DNA from: a virus
Lineage: Duplodnaviria > Caudoviricetes
IMG/VR virus record: IMGVR_UViG_3300011008_000028
Direction: 5' to 3' (one strand)
Length of the DNA stretch: 64,000 nt
A program made the position numbers and the translations under genes. Under the pieces are notes generated by a model. The model had not been told where the DNA came from. It ran no database searches and was given only the letters and a program-made list of their open reading frames with translations. Shown here in pieces: positions 2,425 through 50,302 of this stretch (position 1 is its first letter; each line of letters starts with the position of its first letter).

Positions 2425-2527
2425 GGGCGCTATTCGGTGGTCACTCGGATCACGGTGCTAATGATGGTGCGTTCCGTTGCGACCTGGATAGTACTGTGTC
2501 TCATTCCTACTGGCATATTGGCGCCCG
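2425..2527 (+). repeat. DGR variable-repeat-like cassette, copy 1 (inside short ORF 2400-2636)
   Basis: Reads ALFGGHSDHGANDGAFRCDLDSTVSHSYWHIGARL, a CLec-fold VR signature. Gap-free 89/103 match to 50200-50302. Confidence 0.85.
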
Positions 2528-2605
2528 CCTCTCCCTGAAACCGACCGCGGAAGGGAGAATGGGTGTCATGTTTATGGAGAGGACAAACGTAGAAGTGTAT
2601 CAAAG

Positions 2606-4462
2606 TTATACATATGCTTCGATCTCATCCTGGTGACTGGAATTGATATCGGCATCCATGAATATGCACTGATTACCAGATATCAGGATTTTGATCAGCT
2701 CTGTTGCTGCAGTAAGTACCATGGTATCTGTCTGGGAAGATGTTATTATTTTAGGATTATAATCACCTATTTCCAGATCAAATACTTCCTGTCTTTTTAC
2801 AGAGTCGTTCAGAATTTGATTTGTTTTCTGGTTGGCCATCTGTTTGAGTTCCGGTATACCGCCTTCATTGATTTTATTCCATAGTGGAATGGTCTTAAGT
2901 ATACCGGTATTATCCGGACCCCGGAGTACTCTGGCGTATGTGTCAAGAACTGCGCCGTATATCATATCGATGATCACATACTCAAGCTTACTGTCATCAT
3001 CTTTCAGATTTTCAAATTCCCCAAGGTCATCAATATACTCATTACATGCCTGGGCAATGGCCAGCTGGCATCCAGGTACAACACCGTACTTTACAGCCGA
3101 CTTAAGACATTTAATTACGTCATCTACGGCGGCTTCCAGTATCTGTTTCTGGAGATCCGAATCGGCACCGATGTAATACAGATAGTTCTTCATTTCTAAC
3201 TGCATTACACGGGTTCTGGCATCGTATACCTTTGCAGCCATGTTCTGTCTTTCAACATAGGTATGATCTTCGGCATCTTTGAGTTCTGCCAATGCACGCT
3301 GATATGCATTTTTATACAGATCATCTTCAAAGATATCCTTATTGGGATTGAAGATGGAACCGTTCTTCACCGATATGAGGACGGAATCACATTGGCCTAT
3401 TGCTCTCCAGAATTCATTGGTCGGGTCATCAATGGTCTCAACAAACATTTCTGGACCGACTTCTTCGATCTTCGCAATAATTGACTTCGAAAGTTCCGGT
3501 GTGATTACGCGGGTCTTCAGTATCGTTGCCAGATCATCAAGCTGGGAAGGAAGAAGCTTGGAAAGTCTGAACTGTGTGAGGACAAGATTCAGTCTACGGT
3601 ACTTCTGTGTCTCCAGGTTTATATACTGCTTCAGTACAGACTCCATGAAATATTCATCATATGCCGGGGCAAGTATTATCAGCTTTTTGCCCATATCGCG
3701 GAATATTTCATTCATTGGTCTGATGAAAGCGTTGAACTCATCTGTTGTGATTGAGTGGTTGCTGACAATGACCTTTACATCTGTCTCTGTAGAAGAGAGA
3801 TCCTGGTCACGGACATAAACCACATCAATTGCGTTTGCCGGGAATTCGAAGCCATTGATCTGCTCCAGATACGACTTATTTGTCAAGGAGTCTTTGATCT
3901 TGATTGCCGGACTCTTCGCTTCCTGATATGCCTTCGCTATCGAGTCTGATACTTCTTTGTTACCGTTGGATACCACATACGCAATACTATAGATAGTATC
4001 ATAATCTGAGGGATCGATCTGCTGTGCCTTTGCTTCAATTCTGGACTTAATGTTTGCTACTACCTTGTCCAAAGTTGCCGTGAGCTGTCTCGGAAGTCTA
4101 TACAGCATCGCAATATTTTCTTTATACTTCTCATACCTGCTAAACAGGTTGTGAGTAAGTGTGATCGCCGTGGTTGTACCGTCACCAACGGTATTGTTCA
4201 TCTTGGTACAAGGCTGCTTTATGAGGTTATATATCATTCTCTTGTAACGATTATGGAATATATATTTTGAGAGTATGGAATAGCCATCTTTAGTGGCTTC
4301 AATATTCATACCATCAAGAATGGTTGCAGAAGAACCAAGAGGACCAAGTGACTTAGACAGGTTGGTCGCAATGACGTTGAATACCTCCTGAGTTAACTTC
4401 TCGAAATCTTCCTGAGGTATAATATTAATATGATTTTCATTTGAGTACTTGAGTGCATTCAT
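2606..4462 (-). CDS. groEL: Phage GroEL-like chaperonin
   Basis: SLGPLG, TKDG, GDGTTT and GVVPG chaperonin motifs; 618 aa. Confidence 0.9.
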   Translation of the reverse strand: MNALKYSNENHINIIPQEDFEKLTQEVFNVIATNLSKSLGPLGSSATILDGMNIEATKDGYSILSKYIFHNRYKRMIYNLIKQPCTKMNNTVGDGTTTAITLTHNLFSRYEKYKENIAMLYRLPRQLTATLDKVVANIKSRIEAKAQQIDPSDYDTIYSIAYVVSNGNKEVSDSIAKAYQEAKSPAIKIKDSLTNKSYLEQINGFEFPANAIDVVYVRDQDLSSTETDVKVIVSNHSITTDEFNAFIRPMNEIFRDMGKKLIILAPAYDEYFMESVLKQYINLETQKYRRLNLVLTQFRLSKLLPSQLDDLATILKTRVITPELSKSIIAKIEEVGPEMFVETIDDPTNEFWRAIGQCDSVLISVKNGSIFNPNKDIFEDDLYKNAYQRALAELKDAEDHTYVERQNMAAKVYDARTRVMQLEMKNYLYYIGADSDLQKQILEAAVDDVIKCLKSAVKYGVVPGCQLAIAQACNEYIDDLGEFENLKDDDSKLEYVIIDMIYGAVLDTYARVLRGPDNTGILKTIPLWNKINEGGIPELKQMANQKTNQILNDSVKRQEVFDLEIGDYNPKIITSSQTDTMVLTAATELIKILISGNQCIFMDADINSSHQDEIEAYV

Positions 4463-4563
4463 AAAGTTACTCTCCTTTCAATTGAGCAATTATAATACAA
4501 TGTAACGTTTAAGTATTATATTACCAGATAACCGTCAATCATAAACAACCGAGGAGGTGTAGT

Positions 4564-5229
4564 ATGAGTAAGAAACAGGTTGAATTAGAAAACAAAGAAT
4601 ACGAATCAACATACCGAGATGTCCCACGGGACACAATGGGACGGATTCAATACATATTAGGACGGCATGTAAATAATGAACGGATGAATGATGACATTCA
4701 AAAGTCGGCAGTGTCCATCAAACGTATTAAACGTCATAAAGTATCATTCGTGATGTATAAGGTATTAAAACCATCTGCCCGCCCCAGAGCAAATACTTCC
4801 ATGGGATACGTGAAGATGTATGTACCCCATGCAGCAGAGAACGGGGAATGGTTTGAGGATTTCATGCGGAAGAATGATCTCCCTCATATAGCAACCCCAT
4901 GTCGTATAGACATCATTGTATATGAAAAATGTCCTTCGAACTTCAGTATCAAAAATAAGATACTAAGCGAACTTGGGTTATTGAAGCCATGGTTCCGCAC
5001 AGGGGATGTGGATAATTATGCAAAATCCGTATTGGATATGATCCAACATGGAATGTTGGAAGACGACTGTCTGTGTGTTGACTCGGAGCAACATTTACGG
5101 TATTCCATATTACCACGGGTAGAAGTTCAGATCGAATACATGGATAGATACCCATTCGAATTAATGCCTAAGGAACTCCGGGCTCAGAATGTAAAGAAGG
5201 TAACTAAAAAGAAGAAACGAAAGAAGTGA
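4564..5229 (+). CDS. RusA-like Holliday junction resolvase
   Basis: PSARPR and GDVDNYAKSVLDMIQHGMLEDD (DxDN..K...D.....DD) motifs. Confidence 0.8.
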   Translation: MSKKQVELENKEYESTYRDVPRDTMGRIQYILGRHVNNERMNDDIQKSAVSIKRIKRHKVSFVMYKVLKPSARPRANTSMGYVKMYVPHAAENGEWFEDFMRKNDLPHIATPCRIDIIVYEKCPSNFSIKNKILSELGLLKPWFRTGDVDNYAKSVLDMIQHGMLEDDCLCVDSEQHLRYSILPRVEVQIEYMDRYPFELMPKELRAQNVKKVTKKKKRKK

Positions 5230-5235
5230 TCAGAT

Positions 5236-5865
5236 ATGATGGGTAAGGACATCGAAAGGATGTTATCGGAAGTAGATGCCGTTAAGAAGGTAACGCTTGA
5301 TTGCATTAATGACTTTGCTGGGAGAACGGCATATCAGTTAACACATTATGGTCCACATGATGTCGTGCTGATACCATGGAGCCCACCCTGTTACCCAATC
5401 GAACTGGAATATCCAGTAGGACCAATAATGCCTCCGATTGATGCAGCCATGGTACCACTATTGATTGACATGGGTAAGATGGATACCTTGAAAGGACTGG
5501 TGTATGCTGGGGCAGGTTCGTTAAATAACTCTATTTCTTCTCCATGGACGGAATTGGAAGATCTGAAGAAGGCATGGACCAATGCGGACATATATCATGG
5601 ATCGTATGTCCCATTCAACTATCTAGGAGAGAAGACAGGCATGCTTGCACATCTGAATGCAGTATATACAGCATGCGTCGACTGTAAGGCTCCGCTGATG
5701 GTATATTACCATACTATTCAACAGGGATGGGATCATAACATGAACGGCAATAGTCCTTCCATCTCATGGAACGATGATCTGAATGGTCGGAAAACAATCG
5801 GCCTCGGGTCTCAGTCTTATAGTGGAGCAGTAGCTGTCCCTGGCAAATCAAATGATCCATACTAA
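5236..5865 (+). CDS. Hypothetical protein
   Basis: 209-aa ORF tightly packed in the operon. Confidence 0.6.
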   Translation: MMGKDIERMLSEVDAVKKVTLDCINDFAGRTAYQLTHYGPHDVVLIPWSPPCYPIELEYPVGPIMPPIDAAMVPLLIDMGKMDTLKGLVYAGAGSLNNSISSPWTELEDLKKAWTNADIYHGSYVPFNYLGEKTGMLAHLNAVYTACVDCKAPLMVYYHTIQQGWDHNMNGNSPSISWNDDLNGRKTIGLGSQSYSGAVAVPGKSNDPY

Positions 5866-5874
5866 GGAGGAACT

Positions 5875-6108
5875 ATGGAAGAATTCATAATCGCTAACTG
5901 GTTGCCATTGTTAATAATCATTGTATCGGCATTCAACGATGTGAGATACAGCGTGTTCTTCGCACTGGGTTGTATGATATTTGGCACAGATAATCTGGTA
6001 TGGTTATGGGTTAATCTGATCATAGTTGGATTATCAACGGGGACGAATACATACCAACATATCCGCAAAAAAGAAAAGCCAAAGGATACAAGTAACTGGG
6101 AAATGTAA
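5875..6108 (+). CDS. Small membrane protein
   Basis: AGGAGG RBS; hydrophobic segments and a basic C-terminus. Confidence 0.6.
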   Translation: MEEFIIANWLPLLIIIVSAFNDVRYSVFFALGCMIFGTDNLVWLWVNLIIVGLSTGTNTYQHIRKKEKPKDTSNWEM

Positions 6109-6114
6109 ATATGA

Positions 6115-6141
6115 TCATCACCACCCAATGGGTGGTGATGA
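6115..6141. terminator. Bidirectional hairpin between convergent genes
   Basis: TCATCACCACCC-AAT-GGGTGGTGATGA. Confidence 0.75.
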
Positions 6142-6149
6142 CATTGCTA

Positions 6150-7319
6150 TTATATTTCCAATGGAGAGTTGATGTACTTTTCTATGACTTCAGATGTTAG
6201 ATTCTGAACTTCTTCGGGAATAGTTCCTTCATCATTCCACCTACGTGTATTCAGGAAGGAATGGATCTTATCAGGGATAGACATATTGTTATCCAAAACG
6301 AAACTGAATTCATCGGACACCGAGTTATCCTCTTCGATAACGGTATGTTCAACTTCTTTGACCAGAGGTGTGATAAGATTGTCAGAAGTTGTAACAGTCT
6401 TGAGGGCTTCAAAGAATGCTTGATCGGTTCCTTCCGGGGCATGGAATACAACACGGATCTTACCAACTGTATCACCGCTGAAGATTCCCTCGTTCTGTTC
6501 TTTGATCTCGTTGATCGTTTTCATGAGTTTATCAGGGGACGAGAACACGTCTGAAGTTTCATCAAATTCATATGTCTTATATATGTAGGCATTTTCATTT
6601 GGAATGAACTTCCATTCCCCATCTTCTATTACGGCATATCCTTTGGCTTCTTCCTCACCAAATGATTTCCTAAACAGGGATCCGACATAATGCACGTTCC
6701 CGTCCAAATCGACATGCCTATGGTAGTGTCCCCAGACATTTAATTTACCTGCCTCCGCAAGTTCTCCTGCTTTGAATCGTGGAACCTGCTTCTCCATCTT
6801 GTCTGATGCAGATTTTACTTTTGCTCCGATCCCCATTCCTTCTTCAATTATACCATGGCCGAATATGTAATCATACTTCTTTCCAGAGTACAGAGTATTC
6901 TTGTAGAACTCATACTTGTCATCGATATACTCCTCAGGTATGTATAGTACATTCACACCTGGGAATAACTCTTCTTCTGCTACTGTTGTAAACAGCTTGA
7001 CATCTACATGAGATGATGTGAAATGATAATTGAATAGCCGATACTGATTCATCTCATGTGATTCTGTTCCATATATAATACGTATTTTGGTCTTCTGTCG
7101 TTTACATGCCCTGATTAGAGCAGACATTACATTGATAGCCAACGACACATATTCTTCATTTACTTTGAATAATCTATCAAAGTAATCTCCCAGTAATATC
7201 ACAGCATCGGTATGAGTCATAATAATTTCATCACTGATGATCTTATTCATATTCCGATAATAATAATCTGTATCTTTGATACTTCCTATATGTAAATCTG
7301 CAAGTAATAATAATCTCAT
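6150..7319 (-). CDS. SbcD/Mre11-like metallophosphoesterase nuclease
   Basis: ADLHIG, LGDYFD, GTESHE, GHG and GHYH metallophosphoesterase motifs, plus YVGS..R.SFGE. Confidence 0.85.
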   Translation of the reverse strand: MRLLLLADLHIGSIKDTDYYYRNMNKIISDEIIMTHTDAVILLGDYFDRLFKVNEEYVSLAINVMSALIRACKRQKTKIRIIYGTESHEMNQYRLFNYHFTSSHVDVKLFTTVAEEELFPGVNVLYIPEEYIDDKYEFYKNTLYSGKKYDYIFGHGIIEEGMGIGAKVKSASDKMEKQVPRFKAGELAEAGKLNVWGHYHRHVDLDGNVHYVGSLFRKSFGEEEAKGYAVIEDGEWKFIPNENAYIYKTYEFDETSDVFSSPDKLMKTINEIKEQNEGIFSGDTVGKIRVVFHAPEGTDQAFFEALKTVTTSDNLITPLVKEVEHTVIEEDNSVSDEFSFVLDNNMSIPDKIHSFLNTRRWNDEGTIPEEVQNLTSEVIEKYINSPLEI

Positions 7320-7357
7320 TGCCTTCTACCTCCAAGGTAAAATTTCATCTTTACAAA

Positions 7358-7373
7358 CGATAATATATTATCG
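7358..7373. promoter_or_regulatory. Palindromic, probably bidirectional phage early promoter (TATATTAT on both strands)
   Basis: CGATAATATATTATCG is a perfect palindrome between divergent genes. Confidence 0.55.
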
Positions 7374-7417
7374 AGTTATGACATAAGTCAAATTCAACAA
7401 TGAAAGGAATATGAGAA

Positions 7418-8251
7418 ATGATTCATGAAAAATATCCTGAGTATAAAGCCAGACTTAAAAGAACGGCAACACCAACCATGCCCAGAGACGGTAATGTTTT
7501 CATACTTGCCAAAGCATGGGTATGCATTGGCTGGAGAGATTATGATCATGAGATATTCGATCGAATCCCCGTAGAGTCTAATATCAACGTTCATATCGTT
7601 ATGACGGGCAAAGAGTGCCTGGTAGGAGATATGCTTGATGTAATTGAGAAGATCCTCGAGGATGCCAAGTTCACCAAGATCACAATTCATACACCATATG
7701 AATTACATGACATATGGAATTTCCTCAATAACAAAAATGAGATCACATTGATGAGATGGACAAAACTCATCGGTGATAAGAATTCTGGGGTAAGACCTGA
7801 ACTGAAGAGGATCTCATTCGAATATAACAGAGGAGATCTAGTATTCGGAACAACCAAGCACCCTCCCAAACATAAGACACACAGCCTTGATCTGCGTAAG
7901 GTAAACTATAAGCTCCGAGTTCATTATGAAGGTGGGAAGATCAGTTGCACAACTCTTCTGTATGAGGACAAAACAAATATTCCAACATCTTCGAAGGGGG
8001 CAATCCAGACACGGGCACAGCAGATCGATCCTGAAGCTCACAAGGAAGAGATCATTGCCAACTTCAAATCTGTGACCCGTTTAGGGATTCTGAAAACATT
8101 CCGTGATGAGAATGACATTTGGAATTACATCATGAAGCAGGGACCGTGGGCAAACAAGGAAAAGTCTGACACAGAAAAGAAGTCAATGTCAAACATGATC
8201 AATGAAAAGGCAATGGCTGATCTCAAATTTCGCATGAGCAATAAGAAATGA
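7418..8251 (+). CDS. Hypothetical protein
   Basis: 277-aa ORF with AAGGA RBS. Confidence 0.65.
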   Translation: MIHEKYPEYKARLKRTATPTMPRDGNVFILAKAWVCIGWRDYDHEIFDRIPVESNINVHIVMTGKECLVGDMLDVIEKILEDAKFTKITIHTPYELHDIWNFLNNKNEITLMRWTKLIGDKNSGVRPELKRISFEYNRGDLVFGTTKHPPKHKTHSLDLRKVNYKLRVHYEGGKISCTTLLYEDKTNIPTSSKGAIQTRAQQIDPEAHKEEIIANFKSVTRLGILKTFRDENDIWNYIMKQGPWANKEKSDTEKKSMSNMINEKAMADLKFRMSNKK

Positions 8252-8256
8252 TCATC

Positions 8257-8286
8257 AATTCCCACCGGGAATTCCCGGTGGGAATT
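8257..8286. terminator. Perfect 30-bp palindrome / terminator
   Basis: AATTCCCACCGGGAATTCCCGGTGGGAATT. Confidence 0.7.
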
Positions 8287-8345
8287 TAATGTGTCTCACA
8301 GATAAACTATGTTTCATAACATTTTGAAAAATATTAACGGAAAGG

Positions 8346-8537
8346 ATGATGTATATGAATTTCTTAAACACAGATTGGTTTGGAATCGACTCAGGCGGCA
8401 CGTCTCCGCCTGAAGATGGTCCTTATTATCCCGATGTCAGAATAAAGTATTCCGGTTGGGATACGGATGAAGACGATGACGACGCAGACGTCGCTAAATT
8501 GTATGATGAAGAAGGTGATCTAACGTGGCAAAGATGA
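8346..8537 (+). CDS. Small acidic hypothetical protein
   Basis: ORF with RBS; overlaps the next gene. Confidence 0.5.
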   Translation: MMYMNFLNTDWFGIDSGGTSPPEDGPYYPDVRIKYSGWDTDEDDDDADVAKLYDEEGDLTWQR

Positions 8538-9064
8538 TAGACTTGCATAATCAAGCAAAGTTTATGATCGACGAATGTATGCAATCGCTTATAAAATGGA
8601 TTAAAGATAACTTTATCACCATTGAGCAGCATGAGCAGGATCTGGCAAACTTGCGGGCAGAATTAATGGGTGTTCCGAAACTTTCCAAGACTATCTCTCA
8701 GGGCATAGACGCAGGGCGAATCATAACAGAGAATGACGACAACGATCGGGTTTACAGGCATTACTGTATCATCGATGGCAAGAAGGAGTTAATCGAAGAA
8801 ATCCCATACGATCAGTATCTGAAAGATTCCAACAACCCCGAACTTGGTCGAGGTGGCTATAGTAATGTAGCTGCGTTGAACATGATGAGATCTATACATG
8901 ATACAATGGATAAAGCCAGACCAATTCCTGACGGTTACGCTGACGAACAATTCAAGTACACGGAGGCTGCTCAGAAACAAGGTGCAACAGCATGGGCGGA
9001 AATCAACCAATCCATTGCAAGTCAATGGAATGACATGATAGGAGGTAACCATGGGAACGATTAG
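8525..9064 (+). CDS. Hypothetical protein
   Basis: 179-aa ORF in the operon. Confidence 0.6.
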   Translation: MAKMIDLHNQAKFMIDECMQSLIKWIKDNFITIEQHEQDLANLRAELMGVPKLSKTISQGIDAGRIITENDDNDRVYRHYCIIDGKKELIEEIPYDQYLKDSNNPELGRGGYSNVAALNMMRSIHDTMDKARPIPDGYADEQFKYTEAAQKQGATAWAEINQSIASQWNDMIGGNHGND

Positions 9065-9296
9065 TACCGAAAAGGTAGGAGGCATAACACGTACACTTGC
9101 AGAAGTCAACGCGGAGGCAATACAGGAACTGCAGAAGATGGTTCAGACTCTTTCCAATCAGATCTCATCATTACAGGATGAGAATGACCGTCTTAAGAAG
9201 CAGATCAGATCTCTGCAGGAGCAGATCAGATCTCTGCAGGAGCAGATTGATGATCATGATATGCAGATAGCTGGTGTTAGAGCGTGTTGTATGTAG
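9051..9296 (+). CDS. Coiled-coil protein
   Basis: Heptad repeats; GGAGG RBS. Confidence 0.65.
   Translation: MGTISTEKVGGITRTLAEVNAEAIQELQKMVQTLSNQISSLQDENDRLKKQIRSLQEQIRSLQEQIDDHDMQIAGVRACCM
9199..9247 (+). repeat. 21-bp tandem repeat (about 2.3 copies), one heptad QIRSLQE
   Basis: AGCAGATCAGATCTCTGCAGG x2 followed by AGCAGAT. Confidence 0.9.
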
Positions 9297-9306
9297 AGGT
9301 GATGAC

Positions 9307-9723
9307 ATGAGTATCAATCGACACTTTTATGACTATGAATACATAGATCATGGTCTTGCTGATAACATCGCAGATGTAATGAGATGGCATACACCATCAG
9401 TTCGGGAGATGCTAAAACAGTGGATAGATGCCGTTGGTATAACATCAGATCCTATTGAACTGTATCCGCCAGTCAATGATCTACGTACATCAGCCGAAAT
9501 TCTGTCAGATCCTGAAACGGAATTCACTGAATTACCATTATCCGGAGGACATATCACATCAGCCGATGGGAAAGACCGTATCATCGAGAAAGCGTATACA
9601 ACAGGTAACAATGACCTGATTGTGAAGTTTGATGATGGTAAATACTGCCACTATACCGGACTAATACCTACTTCATTTATCAGTAGATCAGAAGAGGAGG
9701 AAACAAACAATGATACCATATAA
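9307..9723 (+). CDS. Hypothetical protein
   Basis: ATG at 9307 follows a GAGGTG RBS. Confidence 0.6.
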   Translation: MSINRHFYDYEYIDHGLADNIADVMRWHTPSVREMLKQWIDAVGITSDPIELYPPVNDLRTSAEILSDPETEFTELPLSGGHITSADGKDRIIEKAYTTGNNDLIVKFDDGKYCHYTGLIPTSFISRSEEEETNNDTI

Positions 9724-9824
9724 ACCACATGACCCAGAGCAAATCAGTAGGGCATCTATTGCCATGGAACGGATGATGCAATGGATCCAATTAATATCAA
9801 AAGAAAGGAGACTATTCGAAGCAT

Positions 9825-12800
9825 ATGTTAGCATATTTAAATGATTTGCCAAACGAGTTCCGTGAAATGCTGAATCATGATCTCATGAACAAGACATTTG
9901 ACAAGCCGTTGGAAGAGTTCATCTTCGATGCCTTCAAAGGGTTTGAGATTCTGCCCAACATCAAGATTCTGGGATATGAATGGGTCCCAGATGAAGATAA
10001 GTATGACGTCAATGACCATGTCATTCGCAGAAACTCAAACAAGAATAAGGTCATTAAGAACATCTCCGAGACACGTTGTGGTGTACTGTACTTAGACGTT
10101 GAAGTTACAGGTACAGACAAGAACGGAATTCTGAAGACGGTGGTGCTGAAGAAACCGTTAATCATCCCAGTTGCCGACAAACACGGCTACTACACTATCA
10201 AAGGCAAGAAGTGCTATCTTATATACCAGATGGTGGATAAGATGCTCTATCCTTCCTTCGGTGCTGTAACGGTGAAGTCACTGATGCCCATCTGTGTCAA
10301 AACATCCAAAGATGATTTCACTGATACCAAGGGGAATGTATACACCATTCCGACCTACACCATTCAGATCTTCAAATCGGCAATCAATGTTCTGCTGATG
10401 TATTCCAATCTCTGTATTACCAAGTCACTGATGTTTCTTGAAGTAGATAGATTCATCAAGGTTGAGCAGAAGAACAAGGAGTACCCGGAATCTGATAACA
10501 TCATCCGTTTCGAATGTGATAACAAGACGGATGTTGTGATTGCTGTCAAGAAGAAGGCATTCGATGATCAGATCTACATTCGTTCCATTGTAGGATGCTT
10601 GGTAAAGCTCTTCAATGAGACCCATGTTCAGTATGCAGATATTGATAACTGGGAGAACTGGATGATCATCGTAGGCGGAAAGAATACAATTAGGAGAGGT
10701 ATATACCAACATATCTTCTTCAACAGATTACTGGATGAAGTTACCAGGAAAGAGTTAAAGATCAATGACTATGATAAGCAGGACATATACCATTTACTCA
10801 AATGGGTTATAGGCAATTTTCATACGTTGTGGGCGAAAGATAACCTTTCCATGATAAACAAACGTCTCAGATGTAATGAGTATATTTCATCATTCATAAC
10901 CGCAGAGGTATCAAAGCGTATAAACCGCATCGTGTCATTAGGAGATAAAGCCGGATTAAGTGACATGCTTAAGGCGTTTAAATTCCCTGAACTCTTTGGG
11001 GTTCCTTTCGAAATTGCGGGAATATCTTTAGAGCTCTAATTACTAACTCATAGTAGTGATACATATGAGGGCTGAACTAATCATTCAGGTATAGTAAAAA
11101 GATTAGAGATTAGACAATCCGCAGTGAATCAACATTAGCTATCAAAAAATATAAAAGGAGGTGTTAATATGGGAAAATATAAACTTACTAAAAGCGAAAA
11201 AGCCATCTTGGATTTGACAGAAACCTTGACATGGAAGCCTTATATATTCAATGGAAAAGAAACGATGTATGAAGTATCTGATTTAGGAATAGTTCGTAAT
11301 AAGAATTCAAAAGTTATATTGAATGGCTCTCCTGATAAACGTGGCTATATTATGCTAACATTACACATTGATGGAAAAAGTAGATCTACTTTACTGCATC
11401 GAATTGTAGCCAAAACATTTATACCAAATCCTGATAACAAGCCTACTGTAAATCACAAAGATGGAAATAAACGCAATAATGCGGTTTCCAATCTAGAATG
11501 GGCTACTCATCAGGAGAACATAACCCATGCCCTGAGGACTGGTTTAAGAGATCTACGTGGGACCAGAGCTATTAGTAATAAATATAGTGAAAAGCAAGTT
11601 TGTGACATGTGTGAATTATTACAAAAAGGATATTCAATGAAAGATGCAGCAGAGTTACTCAATGCGAATATCAATCTGGCAAGAAGAATCCTCTATTTCG
11701 GAAAATGGGCACATATCACAAAAGATTACATATTCCCAAAATACCACTTTAACAAAGATCTCGTAATAAAAACCAATGAAACGTATGCTAATGTTGAACA
11801 TTCATCGACTATCCCGAAAGGGAGTACACAGTAAGCCAATGACTGTGGAAGTGAAAGGCTCATGTAAATGAGAAGATATAGTCACAACGTACTACGAGAG
11901 TAGTAGCAGAGTTAAAAGCTCGGCCATGAACTTGCGAATCATGGTGAAGATAATTGGAAGATTTGTTTATTTCCAGATTGTATAAATCTGGAGTTCTAAG
12001 ATATATCGAGAATGATTCTGATATCGACATAAGCTCCAAGTTTGCATACACAGCAAAAGGCGAATACATTGGGGACAACACGAATGAGTACCCTAATTGG
12101 CCTTCTCTCTCATAATTGCGGGAACACCCTTAGAGCCTAACTAACCGCGGCTACTGGTGACAGATAGTGAATTTACTATATTTAATTTCTATACAAGGAG
12201 ATGATAATATGAATCCTGAAGAAATTAACAATATGAATGTTCTTGGCAAAATATTAGTTCAGGAATTAATAGATGGAATTAATTCTGGTAAATATGTAAA
12301 ATTAAAAATGAATACAATTCCACGTGATCAGGTAATTCCAGTAAAGGTTCAGCCACCTAAATCAAGAGCAAAAGAGATGGCAAGTAAACCATTCATAATA
12401 GATTGAATATAGTAAAAAGTTCAACGACTATCGACCAACACTAGTATTGGAGAAATACCATACATAGTGTCAGTAGAGTACGGACCAGGGATATTAGGTT
12501 CATATACACAATGGAGCGGTGTATATCTAAAGCGGAAACGAGAGACCCTGTATATTGGTAACAGATATACAGGGAAGATATAGTCTCAGCATGCACCGAA
12601 AGGTGTAGCAGTTCATAAGAGAACGTTATTATCTCCCAAAGATAATAAGAAGATAACTGCCAAATTCGTTAGGTGGTAAAGACACCAGAAGAATTCCAAT
12701 CCGCCAAAGAGCGTTACACCCATCCATGTTGGGCTGGCTCGATGTAGCCGCCACCAGCAGTTCGGACCCAGGACGCTCTGGTAGCTTATCTCCGTATAAT

Positions 12801-40516: not shown

Positions 40517-40533
40517 TGTAATTTTCTCCTTTC

Positions 40534-41062: not shown

Positions 41063-41260
41063 TTATTCAACTTCATTCTCGCTTTCGTAAATCGTGATAT
41101 ATCTGATTGCTGTTTTGAATATCAGTCGTTCACAATTATCGACACATTGTACCACGTAGTACAACGGTGATTCGTCAACAACATTGCCGTCGATAGTATC
41201 GAATCCCGTACCCCTTAGCATCTTGATATGGACATATTTACCCTGTAATCTGTCATCCAT
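41063..41260 (-). CDS. Possible Sm/Hfq-fold small protein
   Basis: 65 aa; LIFKTAIRYI resembles the Hfq Sm2 motif LIYKHAISTI. Confidence 0.45.
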   Translation of the reverse strand: MDDRLQGKYVHIKMLRGTGFDTIDGNVVDESPLYYVVQCVDNCERLIFKTAIRYITIYESENEVE

Positions 41261-42644: not shown

Positions 42645-42766
42645 GATGAATTTGAGTTCCCATCTTACATATTAAGAATATATAATTATTCACACGGGAT
42701 ATACGGATAAAAAATACACACAGGACCCCAATGGGGTCCTGTGTGTGAGCCGCTGCAGAAAATGAT

Positions 42767-43345
42767 TTACTTCTTAAGCCATGTGAATGCATAGCCGAGA
42801 GCGTTTATCGGTGTCGAGAGCAGGTCAACGAACTTGATTGTATTGGTCAGAGAGTTTACAGTTACAAGAGCAACCTTTACTTCGGGCTCAGGAACCACCG
42901 GTGCAACCTCTGCGGCGAAGATGAAGTCTGTACCCTTTGTGATCTGTGTGCCGAGAAGTGCGAAAGGCTTAACCGAAGAACCTACGAAACCGCTGAGAAC
43001 AGCATCGAATGCCTGCTGTGCTTCCTCAGGAATATCGGTTGTCGGGTTAAGCTGTATGCCGCCGAGAGCCTCGCCGCCTTCGATAACGCGTTCGATGTTA
43101 ACAAGATTGCATTCCATACCCTTCTCATTGAAGATGAGGATGACGATGTTCTTGACATCTCTGCCTGAGAGAACCGTCTGTTCAGCGAGAACAGCGTGAT
43201 TTGTGCCGTTTACAAGCTGCGATCCGAGATAAGCTATAGGTGTGTATTCTGCTCCAAGAAGCTTCTCACCAAGCTCACCGAGTGCTGTTGCCAGCTTCTG
43301 CGGCATGCCTGTAGTTGAAATGTTGATTGTCCATGATCCTATCAT
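42767..43345 (-). CDS. Tandem two-domain protein with cystatin-like QxVxG motif
   Basis: Internal duplication: PIAYLGSQLVNGTNH / PFALLGTQITKGTDF. Confidence 0.6.
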   Translation of the reverse strand: MIGSWTINISTTGMPQKLATALGELGEKLLGAEYTPIAYLGSQLVNGTNHAVLAEQTVLSGRDVKNIVILIFNEKGMECNLVNIERVIEGGEALGGIQLNPTTDIPEEAQQAFDAVLSGFVGSSVKPFALLGTQITKGTDFIFAAEVAPVVPEPEVKVALVTVNSLTNTIKFVDLLSTPINALGYAFTWLKK

Positions 43346-43401
43346 GATGTAATTCCTCCTTTTGGAATATTGATATCTGATTGTTATTGCGATTGAAATT
43401 T

Positions 43402-43777
43402 TTATATTTTATCCTTTCTCAAATGAAGATAGCAATCGTCATTGGCCATGAAACATTCTTGTCCCATAACGTCCCATATGTCAAACCACTTATCGTCAAC
43501 AATATTGCCGATCTTCTCAATTACCGAGTTTTCACCATCACTGGTGAACCGAACGTATTGTCCTTGGAGATCTTCCCATCTCATAACTCCAACAACGTCG
43601 AGTATTGAGCAAATACATCTTATTGCTTCTGGGTGAGGAGCTCTAATTTTACCGCCCAATATATACTCTCCGATCACGGCCTCATATTTATCACTCTGAA
43701 CCGTGATCCTGAACATCAGGTAGTCCGGAGGCGTAAGAAACAGAGATACATCTGTAATTTGTCCATTTAATACCATA
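43402..43777 (-). CDS. Hypothetical protein
   Basis: Start after GAGGAGG RBS (MVLNGQIT). Confidence 0.55.
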
Positions 43778-43792
43778 ATTAACCCTCCTCTC

Positions 43793-44056
43793 TTAGTATT
43801 GCGCCCATGTACTCGATGTGCGTTCCAACTTCCAGTATTCACCTTTCGTATACACAAGGTGGTATACGATATCATCATTGGTGAATGCGGCCTTATTACC
43901 GTACGTTTTGGTTGAGGTATAGTGAAGATCATCTTCCGGGATGAACACCAACTGTTTGGCAATATTTGTCATCTCAGTCAGCTTATATCCACCCTCAATC
44001 TGTATCAATGATAATTTCTTACCTTTCAACTTGTCTGTCAGACTTTCAGTCTTCAT
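43793..44056 (-). CDS. Hypothetical protein
   Basis: GGAGG RBS. Confidence 0.55.
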   Translation of the reverse strand: MKTESLTDKLKGKKLSLIQIEGGYKLTEMTNIAKQLVFIPEDDLHYTSTKTYGNKAAFTNDDIVYHLVYTKGEYWKLERTSSTWAQY

Positions 44057-44618
44057 AATATGATACCTCCTCGCAGTATATGATGTCCTTTACCTTCTCG
44101 GCGGTTTCAGGTGTTATCTTCTTATCCTCCAACAGAGTATCGATATCATAGAATGCTTCTTTGATGTTGTCCGGAAGGTCTTTGTATTCATCAACATTGT
44201 TGATTCGATTCTTGATATCGATCTTGTTTACGGTTGTCATCAGTGATTGGAATTCTTTGACAGCAACAGGGCGGCTGTCATTAGGGAACATAGTGCGGAT
44301 ACTATGGTTCCAATCGGCAAGACCATACTGCCCTGCCGACACCACATACATTACCTTCCGATAGAACTTCCCGTTCTCATACTCTGTATAGAGCTTCATT
44401 GAAATTGTCGGTGGATGAGTCGATACCTTCACCACATTTGGTTCGACATAGACATCGACTCGGGTTACACATCCCTCATATGGATCTCGTTCGATCTTCA
44501 TCAACCATCCATCCAGATGAACACATTCACACTCGAAACGTTCACTGTATGATGAGTTAACATCACACCATTTGAAGAACTCTCGAAACTTCAATTGTCT
44601 TCCGTCTCTGTAACTCAT
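44046..44618 (-). CDS. Hypothetical protein
   Basis: Coupled ORF. Confidence 0.6.
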   Translation of the reverse strand: MSYRDGRQLKFREFFKWCDVNSSYSERFECECVHLDGWLMKIERDPYEGCVTRVDVYVEPNVVKVSTHPPTISMKLYTEYENGKFYRKVMYVVSAGQYGLADWNHSIRTMFPNDSRPVAVKEFQSLMTTVNKIDIKNRINNVDEYKDLPDNIKEAFYDIDTLLEDKKITPETAEKVKDIIYCEEVSYYED

Positions 44619-45160
44619 TCATCATCACTTCCTTCTGAACGTTCAACGATATCAACGTCTTCGATTTTAATATCATCGAAGTTGAAGAGCGGAGTTACAT
44701 GGATTATTGCTTCTCCAGACTTAGGATCGTATCGCTTACTTTGAGTCTTGAATATCGTATTGATCACAACATCGAAAATGGGCCGGTAATGGAACAGGTT
44801 CTCTGGAACAACCAGGACCAGTTCTTTCAGCTGTTCATATACCATCAATGCCCGAAATGATCGATCCAACTTCTCCATGATGTAACTCGGCCTTTTGAAC
44901 ATAGGCCGAAGAAGTCTCTTGGCTTTGAACTTGAATAGTCTTTTCGCCGTATTCGGAATATCGAAGACGTATATCAGGTAGTCATCGTCATCATTTTTGG
45001 CCGTAACATACGTGCGGTTTGGTCCGCTATCGGGACATACGCCCATATCGAATTCATTAACGAATTCATCCGGTGGGGTTTGTGACATCTTTGGAAGGTC
45101 GAGAATGGCGAAATATACATTCGGAATCTTGTCATTCATTGGTATCAACCTGACTTTCAT
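44615..45160 (-). CDS. Hypothetical protein
   Basis: Coupled ORF. Confidence 0.6.
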   Translation of the reverse strand: MKVRLIPMNDKIPNVYFAILDLPKMSQTPPDEFVNEFDMGVCPDSGPNRTYVTAKNDDDDYLIYVFDIPNTAKRLFKFKAKRLLRPMFKRPSYIMEKLDRSFRALMVYEQLKELVLVVPENLFHYRPIFDVVINTIFKTQSKRYDPKSGEAIIHVTPLFNFDDIKIEDVDIVERSEGSDDE

Positions 45161-45857
45161 ATAGATATAAATGCGTCCCCGGATTGGGGGACTTGTGTTT
45201 GATGATGATTTCGCATATGCCGTCTTGAATCGTGATCTTCTTGATAGGATGAACGATCAGACAATTGTGGTTTGGGTAATTATCGAATGACACCACAGTG
45301 CATTCCTCGAAAGGGACGGTTTTCCAGTCGTTGTCCATGAACCGGAGATAGAAGCATTTGTTCTGCAGCTTCCTCTTGATCTGACCCATCTGCGTGAAAC
45401 TTTGACTCATGTAATTATCCCCGAAGGAATGCAGTGTCCACACTCGTTTCGAATACTGTGGATCAATAGGTGTATGATACAGGGAAACCAAATTGATGAG
45501 CATCTGTGAGTATACCTTGTCATACTCATCTGCGATTATATTATCAATATCAAATTCTGAGTTTGGACTGATGGGTATTCGATGAACATCTCCATGACCA
45601 ATCAATACAATATCTACTTCATCACAGAATTTACCCATCTCAATAAATATACAATCTCGTATATCACGTCGACAAATATCAATTCTTATTACTTTTGGAC
45701 GACCGAGGAGTAGTACGGATTCAGTCTCTGATGCAATGATAACATCATCTCCTATATAGATGGAGTTATTTTTGCATTTTCTAGCCTCGGTAGATATATA
45801 ATTAATAACATCAATAACCTTAACCATCCTTTTCCTCCGTAGATCTAAGCACAGCAT
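45132..45857 (-). CDS. Hypothetical protein
   Basis: ORF in the operon. Confidence 0.55.
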   Translation of the reverse strand: MLCLDLRRKRMVKVIDVINYISTEARKCKNNSIYIGDDVIIASETESVLLLGRPKVIRIDICRRDIRDCIFIEMGKFCDEVDIVLIGHGDVHRIPISPNSEFDIDNIIADEYDKVYSQMLINLVSLYHTPIDPQYSKRVWTLHSFGDNYMSQSFTQMGQIKRKLQNKCFYLRFMDNDWKTVPFEECTVVSFDNYPNHNCLIVHPIKKITIQDGICEIIIKHKSPNPGTHLYLYESQVDTNE

Positions 45858-46446
45858 TTAAGCTGTAACCAGTCCAGCATGTTACTAACTTCTCCCAGAA
45901 TGGCAACCATTTTTCATCTCCCATCTTATCAAGGAGATCTTTCATCATAAGCGGCGTCTCACCCTGATGTATATAAGTGCCGTTTGACATTAAAACGTTC
46001 ACAAGATACTTTTCTCCTGTATTAAGATTCATTTTACGATAATAGAATATAATGCTCATATCATGGGACTCGCATTTGAGCACTATATTATCCGGATCGG
46101 CTTCTAAGTTCGTTTTAACATGGAAACCGATACCACCATACATCCGATATAGATAATCATCTTCTTCTTTACCAAATCCGCCAAACAGAGCGTTCATGAC
46201 ATCCTTATTGAAAGATTTGTCTCCAAGGAATGATGTCAGTTCAGTAACAAAGTCAGAGATTGTTAGAGCATGGAGCATTTCGTAGTGAGCAGCACATTCG
46301 AAAATGAATTGAATATGCTCCTGTGTATCATTCTCATCTGCGGCTTTACGTTCTTTGACGAACTCCGGATCTTCGAGAAGTCTGATCGAGTCCTTAATGT
46401 AATTCAATGTCTTTTGTCTCATCTTTAAATCCTTTCTTAATAACAA
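45820..46446 (-). CDS. Hypothetical protein
   Basis: ORF in the operon. Confidence 0.55.
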   Translation of the reverse strand: MLLRKDLKMRQKTLNYIKDSIRLLEDPEFVKERKAADENDTQEHIQFIFECAAHYEMLHALTISDFVTELTSFLGDKSFNKDVMNALFGGFGKEEDDYLYRMYGGIGFHVKTNLEADPDNIVLKCESHDMSIIFYYRKMNLNTGEKYLVNVLMSNGTYIHQGETPLMMKDLLDKMGDEKWLPFWEKLVTCWTGYSLNAVLRSTEEKDG

Positions 46447-46643
46447 CGATTATCATTCCCTGCCAGATGGGCAGGGAATGATATCATAATACGTAGCCGA
46501 ATACTTCAAGCATAATTTCGGTGACATCAGATGATGTCATTGGAACGAGACCATAGTCTTCCAATCTTTTGTCGCCTATAACAGTGACCCCATTAACGCA
46601 CGGGAGCAAACGAAGTAGACTGTACGACATTTGTCATTCCCCC

Positions 46644-47063
46644 TTAACACAGTAACATCCACATTAGCCATGTTAGTATGATTTGTAGAATATGACATGA
46701 TTGGTCTGTTACCAGATTTATTACCATCCGGTTAGCTTTCCAGTTATCAATATCGGCATGTAGGATTGTATTCCCAACCAGGAATAACATATACAGCATG
46801 ACATGTTTGAAGTCCATGATATTCCATGAGTACACCATGATTGGAATCATGATCATGAATGACCATTCAAATGCATGTGCAATCAAAGCAACAGCCCAGT
46901 CGAACCTGTACAGCTTCTGGTGGTGTTCATTCATATGTTTGGTTTGCTGTTCCCACCATGACTTCTGTTTCATTTTGGCAAGGATATGTTGCAATACGAA
47001 ATCATCGATGATATGAGCGAAGATCATCATGGGAAGAATGAGAGCATAATTCAGTTGTATCAT
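46644..47063 (-). CDS. DUF3307-like membrane protein
   Basis: AHIIDDFVLQ, H, HADID, DQSCH motif set; true start MIQLNY. Confidence 0.75.
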   Translation of the reverse strand: MIQLNYALILPMMIFAHIIDDFVLQHILAKMKQKSWWEQQTKHMNEHHQKLYRFDWAVALIAHAFEWSFMIMIPIMVYSWNIMDFKHVMLYMLFLVGNTILHADIDNWKANRMVINLVTDQSCHILQIILTWLMWMLLC

Positions 47064-47064
47064 A

Positions 47065-47673
47065 TCAGTCCCTCTTCTTATTCTTCTCATTGTTCTTCTC
47101 ATTGGTGGTGGTTTCATATACAGTATCAACCTCAACTGCAAATTCAGAAGCAGCCGTCGTTGCAAGCTGATCCGCCTTTTCATTCCACTCATGGCCGGAA
47201 TGACCCATCACATGCGTTAACGCCAGATTTACTGTCTTCTGTTTCAGGGTGTTTTGGATCTGGGTGATCTGTTCCCACAGATCTTTGTTGGTAACGGGTC
47301 TGGGTTTCTTGCCGCCGAATCCAGATGTCATCCAGTTATTCTTCTCCCATTTCGCAACCCAGTTCTGTGTTATTCCCTTTACCAGATACTCGGAGTCAGA
47401 GAATACATTCAGCTGTGTAACATTCTTGAAGAGACCAGAATCATGTTCTTCGATGAACTTCTGAGCTCCTCTGATGAATGCCATCAGTTCCATTCGGTTG
47501 TTGGTGGAGAGACGGAATCCCTGAGATCCCTCCATGGTGTGTTCTTCGGGCATGGAATCGGGATTGGAATCATCCCGATAGCGGATTATCCAACCAAGTC
47601 CAGCCGAACCAGGGTTATGGAGAGATGATCCATCTGTATACATTTCAACAGGCATAGATATCATCTCAATCAC
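47065..47673 (-). CDS. rnhA: Ribonuclease HI
   Basis: YTDGS, TNNRMEL, SDSEY, NKDLW, HVMGHSG, NEKADQLA. Confidence 0.95.
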   Translation of the reverse strand: MIEMISMPVEMYTDGSSLHNPGSAGLGWIIRYRDDSNPDSMPEEHTMEGSQGFRLSTNNRMELMAFIRGAQKFIEEHDSGLFKNVTQLNVFSDSEYLVKGITQNWVAKWEKNNWMTSGFGGKKPRPVTNKDLWEQITQIQNTLKQKTVNLALTHVMGHSGHEWNEKADQLATTAASEFAVEVDTVYETTTNEKNNEKNKKRD

Positions 47674-47699
47674 TTCCTTTCTTTTTAATAGATATTGAT

Positions 47700-48149
47700 T
47701 TAGTTCTGCATCTCGATGGTAAAGAAATGCAGAAGCGATATGTTATCATGTTTGACAATATGGAATTGACACGTAAGAACATTCTCGAGAATCTCAAGAA
47801 TCCCGACATATGAATCATCATCTGCATATCGGACTTCAATCTGTTCATATTCTCCATCCTTGATGAACTCTTTGATTGTTCTGACGAGACGAATGTACAG
47901 CTCACCATAGTCAAGAAAGACATCATCAATCATGTGACCGTATTTGTGTGCATACTCTTTCTTGAGTTCACGATCAACATATGGAGCAGGGATCATCAAC
48001 ATGAACGAGTTTTTGACACCGGGTTCAAACTCCCGGATTTCGTACGTCTCCTTCCTCTTTTCCTGTTTGATCCGTTGTGCTTCCTCCTGATTCATCTGGA
48101 AGAATATTTCCTTCGGTCTTGTCCATCTTATTGTCAGTATTGGTACCAT
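47700..48149 (-). CDS. Hypothetical protein
   Basis: ORF with RBS. Confidence 0.55.
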   Translation of the reverse strand: MVPILTIRWTRPKEIFFQMNQEEAQRIKQEKRKETYEIREFEPGVKNSFMLMIPAPYVDRELKKEYAHKYGHMIDDVFLDYGELYIRLVRTIKEFIKDGEYEQIEVRYADDDSYVGILEILENVLTCQFHIVKHDNISLLHFFTIEMQN

Positions 48150-48672
48150 CTTTAAATTCCTTCCTTTTCACCGTGTACCGTATTGCATATACCCCATCTG
48201 CCCACCTTTGAGCAACAGGAGTTCCAGATGGGTTTGGCATCCAGAACTCATCTACTAGAACTCGGAAAAATATCCCGAACATTATATGTTGATCTGGCGG
48301 GACCATGACCGGCGGCGGAAACAAGAAATCCAGTTCGGTGATACCCAAGACTTCTTTGGCCGCATCGAATATTTTGTTTACAGTGCGAGTAAACTTGTCA
48401 TATACATCAAGGTCAAGAATAGCATATACACCATACTTTTTTCTTGCAATGTCCATATCCTCATCCCTACCAATAGCATGGTCCATGAATCGAATATTGA
48501 TCACATCGATTTGTGGGTCGTTGTAATCTACGGGCTCAATGATATAGTAGTCCAGCTTGCCTTTCTCCTCGAGTGCTCTTAATCGATCAATTTCCGGAAT
48601 AATCCATCGATATTCCTTGCATATATTTCCCATCAATAATGACAAGTTTGCCGCACCAATTTTAACAACCAC
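48025..48672 (-). CDS. Hypothetical protein
   Basis: GGAGG RBS. Confidence 0.55.
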   Translation of the reverse strand: MVVKIGAANLSLLMGNICKEYRWIIPEIDRLRALEEKGKLDYYIIEPVDYNDPQIDVINIRFMDHAIGRDEDMDIARKKYGVYAILDLDVYDKFTRTVNKIFDAAKEVLGITELDFLFPPPVMVPPDQHIMFGIFFRVLVDEFWMPNPSGTPVAQRWADGVYAIRYTVKRKEFKDGTNTDNKMDKTEGNILPDESGGSTTDQTGKEEGDVRNPGV

Positions 48673-48673
48673 A

Positions 48674-50116
48674 TTACTCTTCCTCCCCCATCTTATTTAA
48701 TTTATCCTCGGCCTTACCAATGAGCTTCTTGAACTTTGGATTCCGATTGAGTTTCGTTATACGTTGTAACAGACTTGACTCAATTTTACGGTTCTCCTTT
48801 TGTTTCTTCTTTATTGTGGCTCGTTTGTCGGCTTCGGATGTCATATTCATCTGTTGTCTAAGATGAGTAACATTCATACCCTGTTCTTCCATCATCTTGA
48901 ATACATCCTGGAATTCAAGATCCCCATATGTTAGAACACCCCCAGGGGCAGCAGTCTCCAACATCTTCTCCCTCATAATGAGATCATAGATAAAGAGGGC
49001 GTTCTTGTCGGTCCAAGAAGCATCAAAGTGAATATCATCAAACGGGTTCTTGATTCTCTTGGGTGGTTCAAACATAGAGTGAGTGAGTAGCGTGGATCTA
49101 TTCAGTTGAATATCAGAATCATGATTCTTCGGATTCGACTGAATCTTCATCAATATGTCATGGAGATTGTCACGGACATATTTCTTTCTCTTGGAGAGTT
49201 TCCGTTTCTTCTTGGAACGGAATCGGTGGTACTTGTTCCCTTCATAACCCTTCAGTTCAGATCGTTTGAACTCCTTGACGTAAATGTCTTCTGGATGCTC
49301 TTCATGATCAAGAATGTATTGGACTTCTTCAGGGGAGAGAAGCCTCTTCATTGCTTCTTCATCATCTTCCTCGGGTTCATCCCATCCATCATCCATATAC
49401 CATGCATTCTCTTCCTGTTTCTCCTGCGAGAGAAGATCCGAGGGATCCAGGTCTGGGTTGGATATATACTGTATCAGGAGATCTTTGTTATAACGATCCA
49501 TATGCCGCAGTTTCGGTATCGGGATACGGTTGTGATATATTCGGCCATCGGAGATCATCTTCCAGAACTCTTCATCGGAATGGAGATAGTTCTCTTTCTT
49601 CTCCAGCAATTCCCATGCCTCGACCACAATCCTCATTGCCAGGACATACTTGTCTACTTGGCCATAGGTAGTCTTAAGCCCAGACAGCTTGGTTGCAATC
49701 TCATTCAGGGAATCAAGCTTTGCCCTTTCTTCGTCCGAGATATGATAAATGTCCTGCTCGGAATAATCATGCACCAGGCAATATCGACATGACTCTCGGA
49801 TCTGTTCTAACTCGGCTTCCGTGTATTTGTGTTCACGAACCTCCGTATACCTTTTAAAGTGAAGATACTCTTCAAACTCATCAGGTCTTCTAGCAATTCC
49901 CGATGATGAGGGATTCTCTTCTTCCTGCATCTTTGCGATTTCCTTACTGGTGACGAATGTTTCCGCATCTTCATCATCTTCCTCAAAAGTACGGCGATGA
50001 TATTTTGCTCCGGTGTATTCGCCGGTATCAGGGTCAAATCCGGAACTTTCCATCATCTCTTGGTACTTTTCAAATATGGTCTTGCCCATAATAAGCCTCC
50101 TCTCATATAGCTTCAA
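48674..50116 (-). CDS. Hypothetical charged protein (start probably 50089)
   Basis: About 470 aa; GGAGG before MGKT; promoter motif at 50119-50130. Confidence 0.7.
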   Translation of the reverse strand: MKLYERRLIMGKTIFEKYQEMMESSGFDPDTGEYTGAKYHRRTFEEDDEDAETFVTSKEIAKMQEEENPSSSGIARRPDEFEEYLHFKRYTEVREHKYTEAELEQIRESCRYCLVHDYSEQDIYHISDEERAKLDSLNEIATKLSGLKTTYGQVDKYVLAMRIVVEAWELLEKKENYLHSDEEFWKMISDGRIYHNRIPIPKLRHMDRYNKDLLIQYISNPDLDPSDLLSQEKQEENAWYMDDGWDEPEEDDEEAMKRLLSPEEVQYILDHEEHPEDIYVKEFKRSELKGYEGNKYHRFRSKKKRKLSKRKKYVRDNLHDILMKIQSNPKNHDSDIQLNRSTLLTHSMFEPPKRIKNPFDDIHFDASWTDKNALFIYDLIMREKMLETAAPGGVLTYGDLEFQDVFKMMEEQGMNVTHLRQQMNMTSEADKRATIKKKQKENRKIESSLLQRITKLNRNPKFKKLIGKAEDKLNKMGEEE

Positions 50117-50118
50117 GT

Positions 50119-50131
50119 TAATAATATATAT
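50119..50131 (-). promoter_or_regulatory. Putative early promoter
   Basis: Minus-strand ATATATATTATTA. Confidence 0.6.
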
Positions 50132-50199
50132 CTAAGAAATGTGTATAAACTATCAAACGAAATAATCCATCAGGCTAATTGTACCCTATAAAAGTCGGC

Positions 50200-50302
50200 G
50201 GGCGCTATTCGGTGGTGACTCGGGTCACGGTGCTGGGGATGGTGCATTCAGTTGCTACCTGAATGGTACTGTGTCTTTTTCCTACTGGTATTTTGGCGCC
50301 CG
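50200..50302 (+). repeat. DGR variable-repeat-like cassette, copy 2 (intergenic)
   Basis: Reads ALFGGDSGHGAGDGAFSCYLNGTVSFSYWYFGARL; in-frame stop at 50163 and no ATG/GTG/TTG before it. Confidence 0.85.

Follow-up and report, generated by a model that had tools for sequence, protein, structure and literature searches.

The diversity-generating retroelement (DGR) of Bordetella phage BPP-1 (mtd-avd-TR-brt) has a reverse transcriptase (RT) gene beside an intergenic template repeat (TR), a variable repeat (VR) that differs from the TR only at adenines and encodes the C-terminal end of a tail protein with a lectin fold, and a GC element and initiation-of-mutagenic-homing signal (IMH) at the 3′ end of the VR, with a diverged signal (IMH*) at the TR. 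In the Neisseria pilE/pilS and Borrelia vlsE/vls systems, one expressed gene is accompanied by start-less partial copies of its variable part, and short conserved flanks allow gene conversion. DGRs have been described as acting on VRs inside target coding sequences (PMC8144416, PMC4143802), and the many remote targets and partial DGRs in the papers that we searched always come with complete target genes (PMC8144416, PMC4143802, PMC4372165). One TR and RT of Trichodesmium erythraeum serve 12 dispersed VRs in trans, some of them frozen without a homing stretch, and every VR ends a full-length gene (PMC4143802). In the partial DGRs of DUSEL4 Nanoarchaeota, a VR and its cis elements lie away from any RT in a complete target gene, an arrangement read by the authors as fossils or remote targets (PMC4372165). 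Here, we analyze a DGR of a Caudoviricetes jumbo phage, starting from a 64,000-nucleotide stretch of its DNA (IMG/VR record IMGVR_UViG_3300011008_000028; hereafter the window) that carries two VRs outside any full-length target gene, copy 1 at 2425–2527 and copy 2 at 50200–50302.

This DGR shares with BPP-1 an RT beside an intergenic TR, adenine-only TR-to-VR differences, a VR that codes for the C-terminal part of a tail protein with a lectin fold, and the GC element and IMH at the VR with a diverged IMH* at the TR. Unlike in BPP-1, open reading frame (ORF) and protein-family searches found no Avd-like gene between the VR, TR, and RT or just downstream, and most VRs have no gene body and stand behind a GC-rich leader. 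Avd-less DGRs have been reported. As in T. erythraeum, one TR and RT appear to serve dispersed VRs in trans, some of them frozen without a homing stretch, but only one VR here ends a full-length gene. The DUSEL4 elements resemble ours in having a VR and cis elements away from any RT and differ in having a complete target gene. Like the pilS and vls systems, the phage has one expressed gene and start-less partial copies of its variable part between short conserved flanks, and one silent copy (cassette A3) is identical to the expressed allele. Unlike theirs, its cassettes are retroelement-written and dispersed singly, and directional conversion into the expression site is here a proposal. Gene-less VR cassettes were not described in the DGR literature that we searched.

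Two variable repeats, their template, and their target

In a comparison of the whole window, copies 1 and 2 aligned without gaps and differed at 14 of 103 nucleotides, and realignment reproduced the coordinates and counts of the initial annotation exactly. In the frame GCG CTA TTC GGT GGT, which reads ALFGG...IGAR, 12 of the 14 mismatches were at codon positions 1–2, and the remaining two were at third positions (in AAT/GGG and GCG/GCA). A 16-mer common to the 5′ ends of both repeats occurred exactly twice in the window (0.1 expected from shuffles), and a search of the window with this 16-mer, allowing three mismatches, revealed no third copy. A tblastn search with the RT of a relative as query detected no RT in the window, in agreement with the initial annotation.

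Except for two deletions, the window was 100% identical to part of ENA contig ERZ3810914 NODE_13 (147,105 bp), which we rebuilt from gene look-ups for 144 of its 147 kb (all but positions 105360–108544). The deletions, of 41 nt at window position 2561|2562 and 64 nt at 12169|12170, reflect either assembly collapse of hairpins or repeats or real variants. The chaperonin gene of the window matched exactly on NODE_13 and also on a JGI contig from sample 3300010998. G001 (118.7 kb) and G002 (71.5 kb), IMG/VR contigs assembled from sister samples, also contained the 16-mer. Both reach beyond the far end of NODE_13, with 99.97% identity in the overlap, and therefore belong to the same phage. CheckV completeness values imply a genome of ~270 kb. 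Megablast found no near match to the window among GenBank phages, and one scan of metagenome contigs with a degenerate VR pattern gave no match.

Both G001 and G002 encode a 369-residue RT (PF00078, E = 1e-21) with two repeat copies just 5′ of its ORF, and the identical RT is encoded on NODE_13, 750 nt from the contig end. The RT and TR thus lie on the contig of the window, ~60 kb beyond it. The initial annotation had argued that neither window copy can be the template for the other and had deduced an unseen, AAY-rich one; the TR beside the RT bears out both points, as its translation, GGNSNNGAKDGAFNCNLNNTVSNSNWNIGA, is the predicted sequence with K at the one position left undefined.

Both repeats are certainly, or nearly so, DGR-written VRs without a gene. 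First, all 13 differences between copy 1 and the TR and all 16 between copy 2 and the TR were on TR adenines (hypergeometric P = 1.2e-8 and 6e-11, respectively), with zero non-adenine changes in copy 2. Every internal mismatch of both copies therefore falls on a TR adenine, which upholds the proposal of adenine-specific mutagenic retrohoming. Second, the other VRs of the phage behaved in the same way, with differences on TR adenines accounting for 13 of 14 in the expressed VR (see below), 12 of 12 in cassette n99908, and 17 of 17 in the type-B cassette. Third, a 21-nt stretch after GGCGCC was common to the expressed VR and to copy 1 and cassettes A2, X, B, and n99908, whereas the TR diverged from the first base after GGCGCC. 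This difference corresponds to the IMH/IMH* asymmetry of DGRs, which is present in the family but not in copy 2.

The VR beside the TR encodes the end of a 545-residue protein, the only full-length target found, which matches phrog_5302 (‘tail protein’) end to end (E = 7e-89). In an AlphaFold model of this protein (25 homologues; predicted local distance difference test score, pLDDT, 81), a lectin domain spans roughly residues 140–545, and the VR contributes no more than its final strands. The best PDB match of the model was the DGR variable protein TaqVP (E = 2e-11), followed by BPP-1 Mtd, formylglycine-generating enzymes (FGE), and TvpA, and the modeling supports assignment of the repeat to part of a C-type-lectin fold. 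The expressed VR is located in the 3′ end of a gene for a ligand-binding fold, but neither window copy is, and the ORFs upstream of the copies have no lectin-domain homology. The placement of both copies outside any full-length target therefore stands, with the target elsewhere in the genome, and a search beyond the window, as the initial annotation had suggested, recovered the TR, the RT, the 545-residue target, and other gene-less loci. We also considered that the copies might be detached exons of a split gene, but the upstream ORFs lack lectin-domain homology and a group I intron would not fit into so short a gap.

Several further features of the retroelement deserve mention. Related RTs have the same compact VR-TR-RT layout. 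Motif 4 of the RT reads LGFYTSH, where DGR RTs usually have SQ. Mutagenesis of TR adenines can generate a stop codon only at the single AAA codon of the TR, and open frames in the VRs are thus uninformative about selection. Approximately 90 nt upstream of the TR, positions 333–344 of L036 are the exact reverse complement of the first 12 nt of the TR (L036:427–438), and pairing of the two segments may fold the DGR RNA into a helix at which cDNA synthesis reaches its 5′ limit. The TR-RT spacer (L013:2172–2252) gave a sub-threshold match to the Rfam RT-18 RNA (27.7 bits versus a gathering threshold of 41.3; E = 0.06). At VR codon 6 (window 2451–2453 and 50226–50228), the TR codon AAC was changed to CAC (His) in five of six distinct VR alleles, among them copy 1, copy 2, and the expressed VR, and neighboring variable sites differed freely. 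Selection, site bias of the RT, or a past state of the template could explain this recurrence.

A family of cassettes with shared flanks

Our census counted at least seven gene-less loci across NODE_13, NODE_23, G001, and G002 (Table 1). All cassettes started at the same point, 9 nt upstream of the homology with the TR, with bases (GCGCTATTC) that every cassette has in common with the expressed VR and that the TR lacks. A VR-type homing signal followed the VR in all cassettes except copy 2. These VR-specific upstream bases and VR-type IMHs indicate that the cassettes arose by duplication of the final ~135 nt of the target gene as DNA rather than by integration of cDNA.

Table 1. Location of the VR cassettes, their parts, and the TR
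Feature	Location	Strand	Description
Copy 1	window 2425-2527		type-A leader, full homing signal
Leader of cassette 1	window 2356..2426	+	type A; AT-rich box ending TATAAAG, GC-rich octamer CGGGCGCC (2389-2396), ATG at 2400
VR of cassette 1	window 2436..2525	+	90 nt homologous to TR
GC-rich element, IMH-like homing signal, hairpin	window 2520..2558	+	homing signal to 2546, then 7-bp hairpin; 2530-2536 pairs with 2552-2558 (read by eye)
78-aa ORF over cassette 1	window 2400..2636	+	ATG start; TAA 6 codons upstream of ATG
Copy 2	window 50200-50302		short leader, homing signal lost
Leader of cassette 2	window 50175..50204	+	short; TATAAAAG box, then GGCGGGCG (50197-50204)
VR of cassette 2	window 50211..50300	+	90 nt homologous to TR
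Truncated GC element without IMH, imperfect inverted leader copy	window 50295..50316	+	
Terminator-like hairpin	window 50331..50370	.	17 bp; between cassette 2 and end of minus-strand 850-aa ORF
n99908	NODE_13 99908-100043		short leader
Leader only	NODE_13 position 1		type-B leader at contig start; VR past contig end
Cassette B	G001:23190		type-B leader
Cassette X	G002:1-137 = G001:71592-71704		
Cassette A2	G001:92214		intact in ENA NODE_23
Cassette A3	G001:118588		contig ends inside VR
TR	L036:427-516		90 nt, 27 adenines; ends 234 nt upstream of RT
VR tail	L036:1-57		NODE_13 ends inside VR

Three kinds of leader precede the cassettes, and the GC octamer found in each can pair with the GC element that closes the VR on its 3′ side. 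Type-A leaders pair in one register and type-B and short leaders in another. Elsewhere in 260 kb of the genome, such octamers hardly occur, and the expressed gene has no GC-rich leader. The leader of cassette 1 was 87–88% identical to leaders at G001:92170 and G001:118549, and its octamer is complementary to GGCGCCCG at 2520–2527, within a segment (2520 to 2546) common to the expressed VR, A2, X, B, and n99908. The core of the cassette 2 leader recurred in n99908 and in the type-B cassette, which has 41 nt more after the core. In copy 2, GGCGCCCG is followed by ACTTTTAGGAATT, the reverse complement of leader positions 50176–50198 with three small gaps, and the locus folds as one long hairpin (z = −3.3 and −2.75 for the plus and minus strands, respectively). 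This longer inverted repeat is unique to copy 2. A miniature inverted-repeat transposable element or other hairpin mobile element was rejected as a description of the family, as no target-site duplication was present and only the 8-bp complement between leader and GC element is general. Homology of the leaders to the TR flank was also rejected (only one 11-mer, E = 0.02).

Distinct cassettes differed pairwise by 14–18 nucleotides, near the ~18 that we calculate if each is drawn independently from the substitutions observed, which argues that each was written separately by the DGR. Copy 1, with its full homing signal, should remain a DGR target. The VR of copy 1 was identical in NODE_13, and JGI contig L034 was identical from 2471 onward; L034 breaks at 2471, in unique copy-1 VR sequence rather than at a shared repeat, and population heterogeneity at copy 1 would produce such a break. 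Copy 2, which was identical in the window and NODE_13, is probably no longer rewritable because its homing signal is lost, and its lack of non-adenine changes suggests that it was frozen recently or has been refreshed by recombination.

Some alleles were shared between loci. Cassette A3 carried exactly the expressed VR over a 99-nt overlap, and A2 and X were identical, including two non-adenine changes. Independent mutagenesis cannot explain identical alleles, which indicates that DNA was copied from one cassette to another as well as between the expressed gene and a cassette. Where contigs end in shared sequence, its length was exactly 99 nt, which we take to be the k-mer overlap of the assembler; if so, then sequencing reads must connect the expressed allele with the leader unique to A3.

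The family also varies in content. The type-B cassette of G001 (137 nt from leader octamer to GC element; G001:23153–23289) was precisely missing at G002:48439|48440. Because the ‘empty’ site in G002 retains the homing signal, it reflects a deletion rather than a pre-insertion site, and the loss may have been hairpin-mediated or associated with homing. G001 had small deletions in three VR loci.

Origin and possible role of the cassettes

We regard it as an evenly balanced proposition, and the likeliest of those considered, that the cassettes are silent, are rewritten by the DGR, and recombine with the expressed tip, thereby constituting a store of binding-tip variants. The sequences show that adenine-error-prone cDNA made by a single RT from a single TR has written the VR of the 545-residue tail protein and, independently, each cassette, and that the cassettes are DNA duplicates of the end of the target (VR and homing signal) behind a GC-rich leader. 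In the mechanism that we propose, the cassettes would be untranslated; copy 1 would still be rewritten in trans, and copy 2 would be a frozen, rearranged member. All cassettes have 15 nt in common with the expressed VR on the 5′ side, and all but copy 2 have a further ~27 nt in common with it on the 3′ side, so that homologous recombination could move whole variable regions between loci, and the family would then be a set of pre-diversified binding tips swappable with the expressed tip. The phage may keep them as spare tips. A combination of the two mechanisms, in which the DGR writes both the expressed gene and the silent cassettes and recombination swaps tips, would form a heritable memory and a viral counterpart of pilS/vls, an idea we advance only tentatively. 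Of the three explanations offered by the initial annotation, the cassette archive fits best, whereas ectopic integration of cDNA is disfavored by the VR-specific bases and VR-type homing signals, and diversified RNAs or micro-peptides have no support from conservation.

Several observations weigh against a store of tips. First, the allele identities come from short-read assemblies that break inside VRs. Second, no transfer into the expressed gene was seen across strains (the cluster of close strain variants of the target has n = 2, and the nearest other homologue is 61% identical), and consensus assemblies give no direction for the identity between A3 and the expressed allele. Third, members of the family are decaying, as illustrated by the lost IMH of copy 2, the missing type-B cassette of G002, and the deletions in G001. 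Finally, relatives have no orphan repeats, and selection for a library therefore stays a proposal. None were found in eight relatives (G003, G004, G005, G006, G008, G009, G010, and G011). Three DGR phages with RTs 44–46% identical to that of our phage, two of them with complete genomes, had a single VR each; a 32-kb contig with the closest RT (58%) and the closest target (52%) contained only the target VR and the TR, and 90 kb of another contig with an equally close RT had no copy of the VR of the 32-kb contig. A TR and orphans were both lacking in three jumbo phages that have complete genomes and encode a homologous tail protein. The cassette family thus appears to be specific to this phage lineage.

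A strong rival, which we judge plausible although short of an even chance, holds that the cassettes are neutral by-products: 3′ ends of the target would have been duplicated by illegitimate or repeat-mediated recombination, tolerated as junk, and rewritten simply since they carry a homing signal, with allele sharing reflecting ordinary recombination between repeats. Neutral duplication explains much of the same evidence. It accommodates the restriction of the family to one lineage, the presence/absence polymorphism of type B in G002, the loss of the IMH in copy 2, the lack of conserved expression signals, and open frames that say nothing about selection. It accounts less readily for at least seven copies with intact cis elements, for two leader classes that use separate registers of one GC element for pairing, for a cassette that carries the expressed allele, and for the CAC triplet at one AAC codon in five of six distinct VRs.

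Expression of the cassettes as DGR-diversified micro-proteins of ~55–70 residues or as small structured RNAs seems improbable. An in-frame ATG lies 8–9 codons upstream in copy 1, A3, and n99908, and that of n99908 is 4 nt past the stop codon of the preceding co-oriented gene, so that this one copy may be translated; by eye, however, neither copy 1 nor n99908 has a Shine-Dalgarno-like sequence at the usual distance. Three independent assemblies of A2 place its leader ATG one base out of frame. B, X, and copy 2 lack a start codon, and copy 2 specifically has no ATG, GTG, or TTG upstream in frame. Start, frame, and ribosome-binding site are thus not conserved across cassettes. No sigma-70-type promoter was found before copy 1 or copy 2, and the TATAAA box of the leaders was rejected as a promoter, being almost confined to leaders and not the common upstream motif of the genome. 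The 78-residue ORF over copy 1 had no protein-family match, is shortened to ~55 residues by the 41-nt hairpin in NODE_13 and Ga0139311_1008068, and is probably not a gene. As the VR encodes only the last strands of the modeled lectin domain, folding on its own would be unexpected. With regard to small RNAs, leader and GC element can close a long hairpin, as the fold of copy 2 illustrates, but the fold of copy 1 was no better than shuffles (z = −0.87), and the cassettes had no Rfam or Pfam match. Without promoters or start codons, and matching only the variable part of a single expressed gene, the copies have the form of silent cassettes.

Ectopic integration of mutagenized cDNA at non-target sites would also place differences from the TR at adenines, but cDNA would carry the TR versions of GCGCTATTC and of the IMH, and the flank comparison largely refutes this idea, which we consider very unlikely. 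That the copies are assembly artifacts is scarcely credible: contigs of all assemblies break inside VRs, and the window has two short deletions relative to NODE_13, but copy 1 with both flanks and copy 2 are identical in the two assemblies and L034 agrees from 2471.

Genomic setting and significance

The window encodes a tail-fiber protein, a phage GroEL-like chaperonin, RusA, and SbcD. Copy 1 lies downstream of the tail-fiber operon, and a 13-bp hairpin (2327–2357) without a U-tract separates its ORF from a 170-residue ORF that ends at 2317. The chaperonin gene (2606–4462, minus strand; phrog_5725, E = 1.5e-63) follows and is convergent with cassette 1; Pseudomonas jumbo phage EL also encodes a chaperonin. 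The 41 nt absent from the window at 2561|2562, which are present in NODE_13 and JGI contig Ga0139311_1008068, form a perfect palindromic hairpin that reads as a bidirectional terminator between cassette 1 and the chaperonin gene. Copy 2 is antisense between minus-strand ORFs at 48674–50116 and 50385–52937.

Searches of the window with Rfam at gathering thresholds and for tRNAs gave no match. The group I intron model RF00028 matched below threshold at 11689–11906 and 12288–12608 (E = 0.03 and 7e-4, respectively); both stretches carry the AAGATATAGTC motif and adjoin an ORF (11169–11834) whose product matches the HNH_3 family in a pre-computed table. Segments 12065–12169 and 12415–12537 recur in G001 and G002, the former at contig ends.

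Most VR copies of this one DGR have no gene. One published survey sought VRs only next to the RT (PMC8144416), and RT-adjacent surveys of this kind would miss dispersed copies. If the cassettes are junk, then retrohoming needs only ~135 nt of the target end and works at many sites in trans, which would be useful for DGR-based engineering. If they are donors or archives, then host-range switching by the phage would gain a memory component beside random mutagenesis.

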